Part shown: in pieces, positions 42,237 through 49,036 of the stretch
How the letters are laid out: each line of letters begins with the position of its first letter
Position numbering within the stretch: the first letter of the stretch is position 1
Assembly (NCBI GenBank): GCA_029260875.1
Contig: JAJDCL010000001.1
Coordinates: forward strand, 1-49,036
From: Candidatus Saccharimonadota bacterium
Lineage (GTDB): Bacteria > Patescibacteriota > Saccharimonadia > Saccharimonadales > OFTM59
DNA: 49,036 nt
Reading direction: 5' to 3'
The notes under the pieces: model-generated
The model's input: only the letters and a program-made list of their open reading frames with translations
Told to the model about the DNA's origin: nothing
Databases searched by the model: none
Program-made: the position numbers and the translations under genes

Positions 42237-42971
42237 CTACTTTTTAGCACCCAGCTCCTGCCAGGCAGCTTTTATCTTCCGCGAATTATGTACATTTAGA
42301 TGATTGAGGACTACGTAAAGGATTATGATGCCGCCGAGCATCTCTAGCCCTTCTTCAATACCCGTAACTATACCTTGGTACATAAACGTATTGTGCGGGA
42401 TGTCGTTCCCGTGCAGCTCCAAGCCAACCGCACCTATCAGAAATATAAGCCAACCAAACATCATAATCAGCCATTGTCTTTTGTGTAGTACTTTTAATAA
42501 TTTACTCATAAACCAAACACCAAAAACCAATACCACGGGCATGACCAGCCACCATGCATTCAGAGTGCTTGATGACCGCTCCAGGCCGAAGAATAACAAG
42601 TGCAGGCTCTGTAGTGATAGTTCATGGATACCCGACACCTCATCAATCGAGAACAAGACACCAATAAGCGCCATGCTCAGCCAAAGCTTGCGTACAGATT
42701 TCTGACTCGCCAGCTTGGCGGCCACAATACTTGCCCCAGCAACACACAGCCAAATCGCCTGAGAAAACCAGGTAGGCAGACTAGCTTCATCATCAACATC
42801 AAAACGATTAGATATCTCAAATATCTGTCCGTGTTTTTCGTTGTAGGCTAGGTTCAGATGCTGAAAAGCTAAGTGTAGAGTGAGTAATATAATAGTCACA
42901 CCGGCCAGTGCAAGAGCGATCCTTAATGGTAGTTTAATGGAATTCATCCGCCTAAGTATACACGTCAGCAC
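42237..42971 (-). CDS. Hypothetical multi-TM protein (start probably 42947)
   Basis: EASLPTWFS, SIDE..IHE, IEEGLEMLG membrane motifs. Confidence 0.7.
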   Translation of the reverse strand: MLTCILRRMNSIKLPLRIALALAGVTIILLTLHLAFQHLNLAYNEKHGQIFEISNRFDVDDEASLPTWFSQAIWLCVAGASIVAAKLASQKSVRKLWLSMALIGVLFSIDEVSGIHELSLQSLHLLFFGLERSSSTLNAWWLVMPVVLVFGVWFMSKLLKVLHKRQWLIMMFGWLIFLIGAVGLELHGNDIPHNTFMYQGIVTGIEEGLEMLGGIIILYVVLNHLNVHNSRKIKAAWQELGAKK

Positions 42972-45453: not shown

Positions 45454-45915
45454 TTACTTGATGCGACTTTTAAGTGCACTAAGTCTTGGGATAAAAGATT
45501 GCGCAGCGCCATCCAGGCCAAGGACTTTCAATGCACCGATTAAAACATATAATTCATCCAGCTCTTTTGGCTCTATAACGGCAGATTGTTCTAAGTTTTC
45601 AAAGAAATACTCAACTTTTTCTACCAGCCATTTTTCTTCGCCAGGCTTGATCTCGTTACTCTTCAGCTTTGTGGCCTGATCATTATTAACAACCTCTAGT
45701 GAACGAGCAGAGCGATCACGCTTTCTGAGGTGCCCGCGTTTGATAAGATTGTTAACATGTAGCGCCACAGTAGCGACCGACGTATAGCCAGTGCCTGCCA
45801 TTATTTCACGGTAACTTGGGCTATAACCGTGCTCGCCAATAAAGCTCTCAATAAAAGTCAGGAGCTCCTTCTGCTTCTTAGTTGGCAGCATCTTCTCGCT
45901 CATCATTTGTTCCAT
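45454..45915 (-). CDS. LexA-type DNA-binding-domain protein lacking the S24 peptidase domain
   Basis: PTKKQKELLTFI...GYSPSYREI...SVATVALHVNNL..RGHL....RSLEV; the C-terminus is short and not a protease. Confidence 0.8.
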   Translation of the reverse strand: MEQMMSEKMLPTKKQKELLTFIESFIGEHGYSPSYREIMAGTGYTSVATVALHVNNLIKRGHLRKRDRSARSLEVVNNDQATKLKSNEIKPGEEKWLVEKVEYFFENLEQSAVIEPKELDELYVLIGALKVLGLDGAAQSFIPRLSALKSRIK

Positions 45916-45929
45916 TTCACATTTATTAT

Positions 45930-45953
45930 TTTACATTTTTCAGCAATTTATCA
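45930..45953. repeat. Inverted arm at the 3' end of four-helix-bundle gene 1
   Basis: TTTACATTTTTCAGCAATTTATCA pairs with 46329-46352 (19/24 Watson-Crick). Confidence 0.7.
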
Positions 45954-46328
45954 CTTACCATTTTTCAACGTCGAAACAATTTTCTGAAAGATAAACAGAA
46001 ATTGTGAAACTTCGTCTAACAGCTCATCAATCATCTGCTCCTCTATTAACTCAGCTCTTAGTAACTGCAGCCAGTAGCGAGTTTCAGCAGCCTCTTTTTT
46101 CGCTATGAAAACTTTATTGCGAAAGTCTAGTCTAGAACTAGCGTTGTTGGCTTCCGTATAATTTGCACCGATACTGGTCGCACTGCGTACAAGTTGCGTA
46201 AGAATGGGTCTCAACACAGTATCTTGATTATATTTTCTGGCTACTTGGACGGTCTTTATACTGAGAGCTAGCATACGATCTTCAAGTTCTTTGGATATTT
46301 GTTGCGAACTGCGTTGTGGGTTGTTCAT
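45951..46328 (-). CDS. Four-helix-bundle protein (23S rRNA IVP / TIGR02436 family)
   Basis: QLVRSATSIGANYTEA..SSRLDF..K..IAKKEAAETRYWL. Confidence 0.92.
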   Translation of the reverse strand: MNNPQRSSQQISKELEDRMLALSIKTVQVARKYNQDTVLRPILTQLVRSATSIGANYTEANNASSRLDFRNKVFIAKKEAAETRYWLQLLRAELIEEQMIDELLDEVSQFLFIFQKIVSTLKNGK

Positions 46329-46385: not shown

Positions 46386-46808
46386 CTATACCCTAACTAC
46401 CCGGCGACGCTTATGAAAGACCCATAGTTTGAAAAATACGTAGTTCCATACAGTGAAAAACCCAGCACTGATAAATTGGCCTATATACGGTGATATACCT
46501 ATCTCTCTAAGCCCTCCGACAATTGCCAGATCAATCAGGAAATTCACAAACATCAATGAATAAAATCGTGATGCAGTGGTCTCAATTTGCTTTTTAGAAA
46601 TCTTCTTTTGGCCGAATACCCAGAACCGCTCCAAAAAGAAATTTACACTGACCCCCAAAAAGTAAGATATAGACTTAGCCCACCAGAAAGTTATCCCAAA
46701 TATTTGGTCAAACAACGCAAAGGCAGCGTAGCCACTCCAGAACTGCGCACCACCGGCGGCCATATACTCACTAAATCTTATTAGTTCTTTTTTTTGCTTC
46801 TTCTTCAT
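46386..46808 (-). CDS. GtrA-family membrane protein
   Basis: 4 TM; VNFFLERFWVF and WNYVFFKLWVF. Confidence 0.85.
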   Translation of the reverse strand: MKKKQKKELIRFSEYMAAGGAQFWSGYAAFALFDQIFGITFWWAKSISYFLGVSVNFFLERFWVFGQKKISKKQIETTASRFYSLMFVNFLIDLAIVGGLREIGISPYIGQFISAGFFTVWNYVFFKLWVFHKRRRVVRV

Positions 46809-46876
46809 GTCTGTTTGTGGTCTTATATTGAGTATATCACGCAGCTATCCCATAGGTGTTACAATTAACCTAAGTT

Positions 46877-48301
46877 ATGAAGAATAATGCTTCTTTGGTC
46901 TTCGCGCTCTTTCTGGTTCTGGGTGATTTTGCCGCGCTGCTTTCCGCCTTCTTGTCGGCTTATGTGCTCCGGTTTAAGATCTTAGACCCAGAAGTAATCG
47001 CCACAGTGCCAGCCAGACATTACGCATACGCAATTTTAGGTACGATGCCGCTTTGGATAGTTGTTCATTCGCTGATCGGGCTTTACAGCTACTCCGTGTA
47101 CACCAAGCGTTTTGCAGAACTCGGTAGGTTATTCATTGGCTCACTGCTAGGGATACTTACTGTCATCGGCTACGATTTCTTCACTGCAACCCGACTTTTC
47201 CCGGGCCGGTTGGTGCCCATTTACGGTCTCTTGATCGGTTTTGGATTTTTGATTATTTTCCGGACGTTCGCCCGAATGTTAAGGCGCAACCTATTCCGTG
47301 TGGGATTTGGTGTTAGTAACGTTTTAGTTATTGGCAACACAACCGCGACCGAGGGTATCGTAGATTTTATCCGCGACACTAAAACCAGCGGTCAACTAGT
47401 GCTTGGCGTAGTTGGTAAAAACATCCCGGGTTTTAACCACTACAACTCTTTTACAGAGGCGCTTGAAAGTCTCAGGCGCCCAATTCACAGTATTATACAG
47501 ACAGAACTATACGGCGATCAGGCCAAAAATAACGAGATTTTAAAATACGCTCAAGAAAACCATATAGCCTACCGTTTTATTCCAGGCAATACCGATTTGT
47601 TTGTGGGTAACATCGCAGTTGAACTATTTGCGGGCGGCTTGCCTGTTATCGTGGTGCACCAAACAGCTCTCGTGGGTTGGGGACGGATAGTCAAGCGTAT
47701 ATTTGACCTAATTACTACTTCAATACTGCTATTTTTTATTTGGCCTATTTTGCTGCTCATAGCGCTCATACTGAAGCTGTCTGATCCACGCTCGCCGGTG
47801 TTTTTGCGCCAAGTCAGACTTACTAGGTTTAATCGAGAATTCCGTGTTTTTAAGTTCCGCACGCACATTTCTAAATACAATGGCCTTTCACCCGAGGAAG
47901 CATTTAAAAAGATGGGAAAGCCCAAGCTAATAACTGCCTACCGCGCCAATGGTGATTATTTGCCTAACGATCCGCGAGTGTCTCGGATTGGCAGATTTCT
48001 ACGCCGAACCAGCTTAGACGAGCTTCCGCAACTGTTCAATGTACTGGCAGGAGACCTAAGTCTAGTGGGCCCGCGGGCGCTTGTCCCATACGAGCTAAAT
48101 GCCTATGCCAAGCGCCATGCAATCCTAAGTGTCAAATCCGGCCTAACTGGCCTTGCACAGATTTCCGGGCGCAAAGACATCAGCTTTGAAGAACGCCGCA
48201 AGCTAGATATTTATTACGTACAAAACTGGAGCTTCTGGTCGGATATAGTAATCCTCCTCAAAACCATCCGCGTAGTCCTACTTGGCCAAGGAGCCAAGTA
48301 A
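46877..48301 (+). CDS. Priming polyprenyl-phosphate sugar transferase (WcaJ/WbaP family)
   Basis: [52 protein letters not shown]. Confidence 0.95.
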
Positions 48302-48303
48302 TA

Positions 48304-48337
48304 TGGTAGGCGGTAGATAGTAGATGGTAGATGGCAA
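48304..48337 (+). repeat. Heptamer tandem repeat (YRGTAGR x4-5), 5' arm of four-helix-bundle gene 2
   Basis: TGGTAGG CGGTAGA TAGTAGA TGGTAGA TGGCAA; contains the ATG at 48324. Confidence 0.85.
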
Positions 48338-48698
48338 GATTAATTCATTTGAAGACCTGAATTCTTGGCAAGAAGCTCAAACCCTTGGCGTGCAGGTATA
48401 TGCAATTTCTAAATCTTTTCCAAAGGAAGAAATTTTTGGGTTAACAAGCCAGGTGAAGCGTGCCGTTGCTTCTGTTTCAGCAAATATTGCAGAAGGCTTT
48501 GGCAGAAGAACGCTCAAAGATAAGCTTCAATTCTATACGATAGCTTACGGTTCATTACTTGAGACAAAAAACTTCCTATATTTAGCTAACAAGCTGACTT
48601 TTCTTGATAAGCAAAACTTAGATAAACTCTTAGCACAAGCTACCAGTTGTCAAAAGTTACTAAACGCACTTATGCGCTCATTAAGGAATCATGCCTAA
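48324..48698 (+). CDS. Four-helix-bundle protein (23S rRNA IVP family)
   Basis: SFEDL.SWQ...FPKEE.FGLTSQ.KRA..SVSANIAEGFGR...AYGSLLE. Confidence 0.95.
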   Translation: MVDGKINSFEDLNSWQEAQTLGVQVYAISKSFPKEEIFGLTSQVKRAVASVSANIAEGFGRRTLKDKLQFYTIAYGSLLETKNFLYLANKLTFLDKQNLDKLLAQATSCQKLLNALMRSLRNHA

Positions 48699-49036
48699 CA
48701 CCCCACCTACCACCTACCACCTACCACCTACAAACAATAGCAACCTGAAGGTTGCTATTGTTTGCGACTGGCTAACCGGCACAGGCGGCGCCGAGCGAGT
48801 GGTCCTAGAACTGCACCATATGTTTCCAAAGGCGCCCATTTATACCTCTCAGTATGACCCAGACCCATCCATATGGTACGGCGGCAATTGGTTTAAAGAT
48901 GCAGACATTAGAACCGGTTGGCTACAAAAACTACCTAAAGGGCTGAAGAAGTTTTTGCCAGTCCTTCGCGCCATGTGGTTCTCGCATCTTGATCTATCAG
49001 ATTATGACCTGGTTATATCAGCCAGCGGCGCCGAAG
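48691..49036 (+). CDS. Glycosyltransferase family 4, 5' part (runs off the window)
   Basis: ATG 48691: MPNTPPTTYHLPPTNNSNLKVAIVCDWLTGTGGAERVVLELHHMFPKAPIYT...DLSDYDLVISASGAE. Confidence 0.85.
   Translation, partial: MPNTPPTTYHLPPTNNSNLKVAIVCDWLTGTGGAERVVLELHHMFPKAPIYTSQYDPDPSIWYGGNWFKDADIRTGWLQKLPKGLKKFLPVLRAMWFSHLDLSDYDLVISASGAE
48704..48731 (+). repeat. Heptamer tandem repeat (CACCTAC x4), 3' arm of four-helix-bundle gene 2
   Basis: Four perfect units, reverse-complementary to the 48304 arm. Confidence 0.9.

Follow-up and report, generated by a model that had tools for sequence, protein, structure and literature searches.

Near the 3' end of the 49,036-nt stretch of DNA analyzed here (the window), an intervening sequence (IVS)-type cassette encoding a PF05635 protein, with complementary ends of about four heptamers each, is lodged at the stop/start junction of a priming sugar transferase gene and a GT4 glycosyltransferase gene in a Saccharibacteria polysaccharide operon, where it is probably translated by relay. 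Two features of this arrangement are new: a start for the downstream gene at the cassette stop, found in nine of nine filled junctions, and a cassette-specific hairpin over the first conserved codons of GT4.

The upstream gene (46877..48301, plus strand) encodes a Bac_transf polyprenyl-phosphate sugar transferase (Pfam PF02397, E = 2.5e-56), and its stop codon, TAA 48299-48301, lies 1 nt ahead of the first ATG of the array that follows. The cassette ORF (48324..48698, plus strand) encodes 124 amino acids with a pI of 9.4 and matched both PF05635, 23S_rRNA_IVP (E = 3.1e-34; 117.8 bits, cut-off 33.8), and TIGR02436 (E = 1.6e-32; 111.9 bits, cut-off 24). Residues 9-122 also matched PDB entry 2GSC (XCC0516, five chains) with E = 4.6e-16, and by these matches the product is a member of the four-helix-bundle family, which was originally encountered within rRNA IVSs. 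The PADLOC defence libraries gave no match to the cassette protein; gene 1 showed a weak PDC-S19 match in defence-system libraries. Downstream, the 5' part of a GT4-type glycosyltransferase gene (48691..49036, plus strand) runs past the contig end. This 115-amino acid fragment has no Pfam match of its own; its alignment to relatives places it at the N-terminus of GT4, and it is continued by contig C28, which is 93% identical over 242 nt and whose product is a Glycos_transf_1 protein (E = 2.1e-25). No Rfam family was found over 48200-48850, the sole hit, to the hairpin described below, being under the threshold and attributable to chance, and a scan of the plus strand from 46700 to 49036 found no promoter- or terminator-like sites, which is weak evidence. 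A 559-nt contig from metagenome run X1 matched 48172-48730 with 0 differences, although X1 may be the source sample and is then not independent. The genome referred to below as G000 was assembled from a metagenome and shows mixing of strains.

Tandem Repeats Finder placed a period-7 array on either side of the cassette ORF. The 5' arm (48303..48334, plus strand) consists of 4.6 copies of C-poor, ATGGTAG-type heptamers with 76% matches, and the 3' arm (48703..48731, plus strand) of 4.1 copies of the G-free unit CCACCTA with 100% matches. These arrays are two of the three period-7 rows among 15 rows for the whole window; a period-7 array at 42510-42530 was judged unrelated, sitting as it does within a minus-strand ORF. 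By inverted-repeat search, 48306-48334 and 48703-48731 formed arms of 29 nt that are 83% complementary at a spacing of 368 nt. The arm score of 16.5 compares with a maximum of 10.0 among 346 controls of the same spacing at random positions. The cassette ATG at 48324 falls in the fourth heptamer unit, and the 3' array begins 5 nt past the end of the ORF stop at 48698. The first-pass annotation had described one array over the start codon and another just past the stop, complementary to each other and enclosing the ORF in a stem of roughly 28 bp; the placement and the complementarity were both borne out.

The two arms differ in coding content. TAG triplets at 48307, 48314, 48318, 48321, and 48328 cover all three frames of the 5' arm, which also contains ATGs at 48303, 48324, and 48331. 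Read in frame, it gives a five-codon mini-ORF (48303-48320), then a second TAG, and then the cassette ATG, and the mini-ORF may act as a translation relay. The 3' arm is free of start and stop codons in every frame and reads PPTTYHLPPT in the GT4 frame. Minimum free energy folds of 48290-48775 contained the long-range stem on both strands, with energies of −137.5 kcal/mol (z −4.4) for the plus strand and −160.4 kcal/mol (z −6.3) for the minus strand; in each case 0 of 100 shuffles were as good. In plus-strand RNA, the helix is interrupted, with 24 of 29 Watson-Crick pairs and all five mismatches being A·C.

The start of GT4 lies inside the cassette. An ATG at 48691..48693 (plus strand, ORF list) overlaps the cassette stop (ATGCCTAA) and begins the reading frame of GT4; it is the sole start codon (ATG, GTG, or TTG) in that open frame upstream of the conserved KVAIVCDW. 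The predicted N-terminus is MPNTPPTTYHLPP, with an extension of ~17 amino acids whose coding sequence is the 3' arm plus the 5' half of an adjoining hairpin. Spacer length differs among the nine filled junctions, yet each has a start codon at the cassette stop, or overlapping it, that is in frame with GT4. Judged from the reading frame, GT4 in the window has no start of its own and is predicted to be read in frame from the cassette stop through the G-free 3' arm. The hairpin (48731..48764, plus strand) was found by inverted-repeat search and is a perfect 16-bp structure (−22 kcal/mol, z −8.1) whose 3' half comprises the first conserved GT4 codons (KVAIVC). Median hairpin energy was −14.6 kcal/mol in eight filled junctions versus −4.5 kcal/mol in 19 empty or remnant ones (Mann-Whitney p = 5e-4); filled junctions have such hairpins and empty ones do not. 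Both the ATG at 48691 and the 16-bp hairpin had been missed by the earlier reading of the sequence. For annotation, arm remnants can account for short Pro/Thr-rich inserts at N-termini or within proteins, PPTTYNLPPT in the GT4 of C28 being one such insert. The 60-nt in-frame insertion in C28 GT4 was also considered as a complete mini-hairpin, which was rejected (z 0.19); it is a solo C-type array.

Sugar-transferase/GT4 junctions were compared in related genomes, which are not independent samples; of 29 surveyed, 4 were filled, 18 empty, 1 held a remnant, and 6 had a different downstream gene; filled junctions number nine overall. The remnant, in G002, consists of the 5' array and some nine codons of the ORF, which run in frame into GT4. 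On a single-gene tree of the sugar transferase, the seven filled rows require seven changes. A ~90% relative present in runs X1 and X3 leaves the window sequence at 48297 and rejoins it at 48757, and a strain-variant junction was sought in the G000 assembly and was not present there. L061 and L062, sister cassettes at two different sites, can be aligned solely from GCTATTGG to CCAATAGCC, their flanks being unrelated; within this segment, the arms are ~90% conserved, compared with ~70% nucleotide identity for the ORF. One cassette clade was found at three junction types, and the borders of L061/L062 and G000 showed no target-site duplication. Identity of the cassette protein was weakly correlated with that of the flanking gene (rho 0.30, p = 0.12), and the pair L005-L008 combined 85% flank identity with 50% cassette identity; with congruence this weak, neither strict vertical descent nor replacement is established. 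These comparisons indicate that arm-ORF-arm behaves as a unit of gain and loss. The existence of orthologous junctions without the cassette is thus confirmed, and the occurrence of filled, empty, and remnant states, together with the arm-bounded sister cassette, lends weight to the suggestion of a mobile unit.

The same design recurs widely. Among 27 order-level cassettes, arm complementarity exceeded the 95th percentile of 346 position controls in 20 and the control maximum in 13. Among 104 homologous cassettes from many phyla, 69 exceeded the 95th and 42 the 99th percentile of a mismatched-pair control, the median stem length was 28 bp, and 7 was the best period for 77 of the 104 upstream flanks and for 82 of the 104 downstream ones; at some loci the period is instead 6, 8, or 14. 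Periodicity and complementarity of the flanks, which the first-pass annotation had proposed as a check, were therefore both far above controls, with 69 of 104 complementary and about three-quarters of period 7. The heptamer sequence varies from locus to locus and covaries between paired arms. G exceeds C in the 5' arm of 65 of the 69 cassettes with complementary arms, the downstream neighbor is codirectional in 90 of 95 cassettes, and the protein is basic (median pI 9.4; above 8 in 86 of 100). Among 101 proteins, those of the nine junction cassettes belong to a single clade with 11 members (support 0.66). For junction cassettes, the mean own-arm score was 15.1 versus 7.6 for cross pairs, the own arm being best in seven of eight rows.

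Across the 69 good stems, 262 mismatches included 51 G·U and 73 A·C; by locus, 15 stems had more G·U, 28 more A·C, and 26 were tied. This wobble test thus gave no sense-strand G·U excess in the 69 stems and lends no support to selection on a sense-RNA helix, a result confounded by the need of the 5' arm for A in its ATG and stop codons. Absence of stops from 3' arms was rejected as a general rule (mean 1.64 stops/35 nt versus 1.31 in random 35-mers): 28 of 104 lack any stop, and the window arm and the GT4 frame at the sugar-transferase/GT4 junction are stop-free. Cassettes of the same design in relatives precede efp, dnaK, dnaJ, recF, miaA, pheT, uppS, and atp genes. Because the same design, with its own arms, occurs at unrelated junctions, the cassette is not a locus-specific regulator, and the proposal that it is dedicated to control of the surface polysaccharide operon is not supported.

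Leptospira provides another example of a 23S rRNA IVS. The closest parallel is the 23S IVS of Coxiella burnetii (Warrier et al. 2016, PMC4990558), where the accessible part of the paper describes an S23p ORF, a 28-bp stem that RNase III cuts mid-stem in vitro, and three tandem GACAGAT heptamers before the ATG that vary in number between strains. As far as that part goes, the window cassette shares the S23p/PF05635 family, a terminal stem of ~28 bp, 5' heptamers at the ATG, and a size of ~430 nt. Unlike the Coxiella IVS, it lies in a protein-coding operon junction rather than in 23S helix 25 or 45 and is wired to translation through start/stop overlaps, a 3' arm read in frame, and an extra hairpin. 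The earlier description of an IVS-like cassette in an mRNA operon agrees with this anatomy on ORF, stem, and heptamers at the ATG (PMC4990558, within the same part). Insertions in rRNA genes of CPR bacteria carry 23S_rRNA_IVP ORFs with a domain described as functionally uncharacterized, and those of Saccharibacteria are mostly short and ORF-less, according to the accessible text of Tsurumaki et al. 2024 (PMC11270868). The phylum-level group and protein family are shared with the window, whereas that text covers rRNA genes only; the terms "four-helix" and "inverted repeat" each have 0 occurrences in it. A second parallel is found in the accessible text of Rehm et al. 2015 (PMC4692102), which reports overrepresented heptamers, namely Xanthomonas GGGAATC pairs, Nostoc GGGGA(C/T)T, and Calothrix heptanucleotides. 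Like the arms, these are intergenic in operons, often form two close convergent arrays, and vary between relatives. That text discusses G-quadruplexes and polymerase slippage and draws no link to PF05635; in it, "S23," "intervening," and "four helix" each have 0 occurrences. Searching the literature, supplements excluded, found no paper describing PF05635 genes with flanking heptamer arrays outside rRNA.

For the reading that we consider probable, that of an IVS-type cassette relay-translated at the junction, the following course can be proposed. The cassette would be cotranscribed with the polysaccharide operon. A ribosome stopping at the TAA of the sugar transferase gene would meet the all-frame TAGs of the C-poor 5' arm and restart at an arm ATG; a second stop at TAA 48696-48698 would be followed by a restart at ATG 48691 for GT4. 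The hairpin over the first GT4 codons would replace the native ribosome-binding region, so that translation of GT4 would depend on ribosomes arriving from the cassette, and the only deletions then tolerated would be in frame and with the cassette start kept, as in G002. In plus-strand RNA, the arms would close a stem of ~28 bp resembling the RNase III substrate of rRNA IVSs, and G000 encodes RNase III (C11, 24154-24537). Since the GT4 start falls within the loop, ahead of the 3' arm, complete excision by RNase III would sever it, which places the RNase III step and start capture in tension; cleavage at the window locus would be at most partial, or would act as a brake on GT4. Complementarity of the arms may be upheld chiefly through events in the DNA, namely slippage inside each array and conversion between arms.

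An alternative account looks to the DNA itself, with the inverted heptamer arrays as structure-defined terminal repeats that the basic PF05635 protein moves or maintains and with ORF-less hairpins as MITE- or REPIN-like derivatives. It concerns the spread of the cassette and is compatible with the relay-translated IVS-type cassette favored above. REPIN/RAYT systems and MITEs show a gene between inverted repeats, gene-less hairpin doublets at operon junctions, and patchy presence. The cassette is arm-bounded at two sites with arms better conserved than the ORF, one clade occupies three junction types, and the protein is basic. ORF-less paired arrays, of GGTAG/CTACC or other types, were also found at operon junctions in G000, namely before atpG (C31), between rplB and rpsS (C29), and between der and pth (C21), as well as beside 5S rRNA (C2:9846-9917), and period-7 arrays are enriched in that genome (15, versus 0-8 for periods 4-6 and 8-12). 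Unlike the elements just named, however, the cassette has no HUH or transposase domain, conserved ends, or target duplication, and copies per genome are few; near-identical copies are absent from G000, where the two PF05635 genes share 19% identity. Close cassettes differ in their end sequences, unlike transposase-recognized ends, the PF05635 family is not known to have a nuclease or recombinase motif, and the ORF-less arrays may equally be decay products, with C31 retaining ATGGGAGAG, an ORF start. As an explanation of the locus, we regard this account as rather unlikely. It is possible, and we advance it tentatively, that PF05635 cassettes and ORF-less array hairpins form one very widespread, cross-phylum mobile class with ends set by periodicity and self-complementarity, inserting at operon stop/start junctions and retained by capturing the start of translation from the following gene, which is often essential. 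If so, ORF-bearing rRNA IVSs would represent the particular case of an insertion into rRNA, and the heptanucleotide excess of Xanthomonas (GGGAATC pairs) and of cyanobacteria would be footprints of such elements.

Two further possibilities, in which the arrays serve control, are not favored. The first is binding of the kind seen with TRAP or HutP, in which a PF05635 pentamer would bind the UAG-bearing 7-nt units of its own mRNA, one per subunit, and so control translation of cassette and GT4. The DGR protein Avd binds nucleic acid. Four to five array units compare with the five chains of 2GSC, the window 5' arm presents UAG at 7-nt spacing, the protein is basic, and its family is related to Avd in the accessible part of PMC10053308. 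Within one protein clade, however, at 54-68% protein identity, the heptamers are unrelated (GGTAGAT, ATAGGTG, ATACTTG, and CTATTGG/AATTTGG), so that sequence-specific recognition would need to re-evolve each time. Loci with periods of 6, 8, or 14, and ORF-less arrays that persist in G000 whereas its two family proteins belong to other heptamers, likewise speak against such binding. Unit-by-unit binding by the protein's own oligomer, as the first-pass annotation had offered, is therefore unlikely.

The second is a phase-variation switch, in which gain or loss of one CCACCTA unit would shift the GT4 frame and toggle a surface-glycan transferase. The repeat is perfect over 4.1 units, has a unit length that is not a multiple of 3, and lies within the 5' end of the GT4 ORF; 3' arms at the sugar-transferase/GT4 junction are often perfect (L006, L008, and L060), and the accessible part of PMC4990558 reports strain differences in heptamer number in Coxiella. 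There are only four units, however, and the frame was ON in nine of nine junctions. Housekeeping genes, for which switching would do harm, lie downstream of cassettes with the identical architecture. Array indels were not found in contigs of four metagenome runs, including a 93% relative spanning 48053-48732, although contigs drop rare variants. Such a switch is quite improbable.

Participation as a DGR accessory protein acting with a reverse transcriptase has next to nothing in its favor beyond the small, basic, homologous four-helix-bundle Avd (PMC10053308, accessible part) and RVT_1 matches on contig C24 of G000, and it was rejected: those matches are confined to C24 rather than the cassette contig, the cassette, unlike Avd, has no adjacent reverse transcriptase, no TR/VR pair was noticed near it, and most cassette-bearing relatives (15 of 21 genomes, including G057, 98% complete in 4 contigs with 5 places listed) gave no RVT_1 match.

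The PF05635/TIGR02436 family is very large, and its function is known only within DGRs. Both rRNA IVSs and the bacterial heptamer excess have gone for decades without explanation, and the window locus joins the two with this family. The IVS design of ORF, 28-bp stem, and heptamers is present in ordinary operons across phyla. The junction described here suggests a testable route by which such a unit may coexist with, and keep its hold on, a host operon, with three elements, namely a 5' arm carrying stops in every frame, a cassette stop at which a start codon lies, and a hairpin that replaces the start region of the next gene.

Genome G000, of which the window is contig C1, comprises 1.0 Mb at 46% G+C and is 96% complete; among the relatives listed, Candidatus Saccharibacteria MAGs are the closest named ones. 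The cassette in the window is a real feature, an IVS-type cassette (IVS, intervening sequence of 23S rRNA) in an mRNA operon. The sugar transferase gene (46877–48301, + strand; Bac_transf, E 2.5e-56) ends in TAA, directly after which the sequence reads T ATGGTAG GCGGTAG ATAGTAG ATGGTAG ATGGC. Tandem Repeats Finder returned a period-7 array here, the 5′ arm (48303–48334; 4.6 copies, 76%), and a perfect (CCACCTA)x4.1 array, the 3′ arm (48703–48731). Between them lies an ORF of 124 amino acids (48324–48698, + strand) that matches PF05635 (E 3.1e-34) and TIGR02436 (E 1.6e-32) and resembles the solved Xanthomonas protein XCC0516 (2GSC; E 4.6e-16); the protein is basic (pI 9.4, also the median of 100 cassettes). 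The first-pass annotation had described an ORF enclosed by complementary heptamer arrays, and this was borne out: the arrays are inverted copies over 29 nt, 83% complementary and separated by 368 nt, and the long-range stem was recovered in folds of both strands (z −4.4, +; z −6.3, −), all five mismatches of the sense-RNA stem being A·C.

Three features go beyond the first-pass annotation. TAG occurs in all three frames of the 5′ arm and ATG at 48303, 48324 and 48331, the in-frame order being a 5-codon mini-ORF, two stops and the cassette ATG. The 3′ arm is G-free and devoid of start and stop codons in all three frames. A further ATG at 48691 overlaps the cassette stop (ATGCCTAA), and its frame crosses the 3′ arm into KVAIVCDW, the conserved N terminus of the GT4 glycosyltransferase. 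Directly after the 3′ arm lies a perfect 16-bp hairpin (48731–48764; −22 kcal/mol, z −8.1), the 3′ half of which is the first conserved GT4 codons. The GT4 fragment in the window had no Pfam match of its own; its continuation on contig C28, 93% identical to the fragment, is Glycos_transf_1.

For comparison of arms in other cassettes, a protein search of 61 same-order genomes gave relatives in 21; the 27 of 30 fetched loci with a callable start codon (L009, L016 and L026 were left out) were set against 346 random positions with the same spacing. In arm complementarity, 20 of the 27 lay above the 95th percentile and 13 above the highest control, and 7-nt periodicity exceeded the 95th percentile in 21 upstream and 20 downstream flanks. 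A one-genome-per-species scan yielded 593 relatives among 600 candidate stretches, and the best 80 of the 593, which are not a random sample, were used; they came from Saccharibacteria, other CPR groups, Gammaproteobacteria, Bacteroidota, Chloroflexota, Planctomycetota, Nitrospirota, Acidobacteriota, Verrucomicrobiota and others. In the pooled set of 107 cassettes, both flanks were present in 104, and 69 of these had own 5′/3′ complementarity beyond the 95th percentile of a mismatched-pair control, 42 of them beyond the 99th, although such counts overstate significance because related genomes are non-independent samples. The proposed check for periodicity and flank complementarity came out far above controls. 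The best period was 7 in 77/104 upstream and 82/104 downstream flanks, followed by 6 and 8. Heptamer sequence varies between loci, stem length has a median of 28 bp (range 12–41), and G exceeds C in the 5′ arm of 65 of 69 cassettes. Mismatches in the 69 stems, read as sense RNA, were 51 G·U versus 73 A·C, with no wobble preference.

Some cassettes have a unit other than a heptamer, namely a hexamer (AACCTC, AAGGTT), an octamer or a 14-mer (L087, L124, L132 and L118, which are Bacteroidota, Myxococcales and other loci; L021; L061/L062), and the arrays are direct rather than inverted in L014, L070, L087, L120 and L135. Short GC-rich hairpins, such as TGAGGC-GAA-GCCTCA and GCAAGC-GAA-GCTTGC, were seen ahead of the 5′ arm, after the stop codon of the upstream gene, in L003/L038, L080, L066 and L064.

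The sugar transferase was located in 29 of 31 genomes, and the region after its stop was compared. Orthologous junctions lacking the cassette, which had been suggested as a check, were found: GT4 follows directly in 18, a PF05635 cassette in four, another gene in six and a remnant in one. At empty junctions GT4 begins 0–60 nt after the stop, typically with MK..KVAIVHDW. The remnant, in G002 of the same family as the window genome, is the 5′ array followed by about nine codons of the cassette, which continue in frame into GT4 (MVTGKIQSLRVAIICDW); G030 has the same remnant type ahead of a LexA-like gene. With G057, G040, G031 and loci L060 and L061 added, the known filled junctions number nine. 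A sugar-transferase tree (32 sequences) requires seven changes to account for the seven filled rows, and in a tree built from 101 family proteins all nine junction cassettes share one 11-member clade (support 0.66) with L004 and L062, each adjoining a LexA-like gene. L061 lies at the junction and L062 follows the LexA-like gene; their likeness is confined to the stretch from the outer 5′-arm end to the outer 3′-arm end (arms ~90% identical, ORF ~70%), and the flanks are unrelated. The arm-ORF-arm is a self-contained unit, gained and lost at operon junctions, with arms that evolve in concert: within the junction lineage the own 3′ arm was the best partner in 7/8 rows (mean score 15.1 own versus 7.6 cross). 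Cassette protein and flank divergence correlated weakly (rho 0.30, p 0.12), and the L005–L008 pair is 85% identical in the flank and 50% in the cassette.

Metagenome contigs contain an exact copy across 48172–48730 and a ~90% relative that parts from the window sequence at 48297 and matches it again from 48757. They hold at least two strain versions of the locus, the other strain differing between sugar transferase and GT4, and window 48795–49036 overlaps C28:1–242 at 93% identity; close-strain mixing in the MAG at this locus follows from these two observations.

At filled junctions, the 3′ end of the cassette has captured the GT4 start. In all nine, the GT4 frame is open through the entire 3′ arm back to a start codon at or over the cassette stop (ATGCCTAA, ATGA, TAATG or TTGA), and it is kept despite spacers of 64–109 nt; P, T, S, N and Q abound in the N-terminal extensions so encoded. 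Directly upstream of the conserved DW codon, a 42-nt segment folded with a median of −14.6 kcal/mol in eight filled versus −4.5 kcal/mol in 19 empty or remnant junctions (p 5e-4). In the strong-stem filled junctions (G000, L003, L006, L008, L060 and L061) the printed helix is perfect Watson–Crick, pointing to correction at the DNA level. In L013 the cassette is followed by a similar hairpin over the first miaA codons. Over all cassettes, the neighbour is co-directional downstream in 90/95 and upstream in 74/98, the median distance from upstream stop to cassette ATG is 33 nt, and 29/107 cassettes have a start codon overlapping their stop. Stops number 3.3 per 35 nt in the 5′ arms versus 1.3 in random pieces, and 79/104 arms have them in two frames or more; a general stop depletion in the 3′ arms of all cassettes was not found.

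G000 holds further arrays and a second family gene. A second PF05635/TIGR02436 gene (45951–46328, − strand; E 2.5e-15 and 2.3e-20), 19% identical to the cassette ORF, immediately precedes a LexA-like gene (45454–45915, −); its flanks bear weak degenerate heptamers (TTCACAT x2, 5′; AAATGTx x4, 3′) pairing over ~8 bp. At C2:9846–9917 (L141), an ORF-less hairpin of two complementary GGTAG/CTACC-type heptamer arrays (−46 kcal/mol; T·T mismatch at unit position 6 in 3/4 units) sits in the 23S–5S spacer, ~20 nt from the 5S rRNA gene (RF00001, C2:9712–9826, −). ORF-less paired arrays also occur at operon junctions, at C31:4883–4978 (before atpG), C29:29029–29148 (rplB/rpsS) and C21:25951–26039 (der/pth). 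The C31 pair retains ATGGGAGAG and ~25 nt between its arms, as if an ORF had been deleted, and an intact cassette, similar at its start, sits in the atp operon of G047 (L025). Two coding genes contain solo CCACCTA-type arrays in frame, at C28:293–323 and C28:6341–6375 (L140): that of the GT4 continuation is within a 20-amino acid insertion (NGKRQRSAASPPTTYNLPPT) missing from 17 relatives, and that of rmlD encodes TTTYNLPPT; a hairpin is absent at both. A TGGTAAA-type array (C28:6690–6745) occupies the spacer between rmlD and the next downstream gene. Two RVT_1 (reverse-transcriptase) matches were found at C24:8462–9109 and C24:19547–19864, on a contig with no PF05635 match.

We propose that cassette and operon would be co-transcribed as one transcript; a scan of the + strand found no promoter- or terminator-like site between the genes. 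Translation could pass by a termination–reinitiation relay from sugar transferase to cassette ORF to GT4, the hairpin having probably replaced the native initiation region of GT4. Surviving deletions would be only those that retain the cassette's start, the pattern of G002 and G030, and complementarity may be kept up mainly by DNA-level slippage and conversion. A rival reading compatible with the data is a DNA mobile element with structure-defined ends, the basic PF05635 protein being its trans factor. The arm-bounded unit, its filled, empty and remnant states and the ORF-less hairpins of G000 speak for the mobile unit that had been suggested; alignment of L061 and L062 showed no target duplication at their borders, however, and the element lacks conserved ends and its protein a known catalytic motif. 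By analogy, the ~28-bp stem would be the same object as that cut mid-stem by RNase III in the Coxiella IVS, where tandem heptamers of variable number precede the ATG (PMC4990558), and an RNase III gene is present in G000. We nevertheless regard RNase III processing of the cassette stem as possible but slightly doubtful, because excision would sever the GT4 start and the 69 stems have no sense-RNA wobble preference. TRAP/HutP-like, unit-by-unit binding of the heptamers by the cassette's own oligomer, an earlier proposal, is disfavoured, since the one junction clade includes unrelated heptamers (its units are GGTAGAT, GGTAGTT, GGAAGAT, ATAGGTG, ATACTTG, GGTATTT and CTATTGG/AATTTGG). Phase variation through heptamer number is likewise disfavoured by cassettes in housekeeping contexts, by there being four units only and, weakly, by the lack of indel variants among metagenome contigs, including a 93% relative across both arrays. 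An Avd role for the protein is disfavoured by the lack of an RVT_1 match in 15 of 21 cassette-bearing genomes.

The nearest known system is the ORF-bearing 23S rRNA IVS, all tested anatomical features of which are shared by the cassette except the defining rRNA location. In the available sections of a CPR rRNA-insertion survey, 23S_rRNA_IVP ORFs are reported in rRNA insertions only and the domain is called uncharacterized (PMC11270868). Rehm et al. described an unexplained excess of heptamers, with 70–75 convergent GGGAATC pairs in Xanthomonas, and the available sections do not mention the PF05635 family (PMC4692102). Heptamer-flanked PF05635 cassettes outside rRNA were undescribed in the full texts searched. 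Three features set the GT4 junction apart: capture of the GT4 start in frame, the hairpin that comes with the cassette, and the remnant left by an in-frame deletion. Taken as a set, they are a testable account of cassette persistence.
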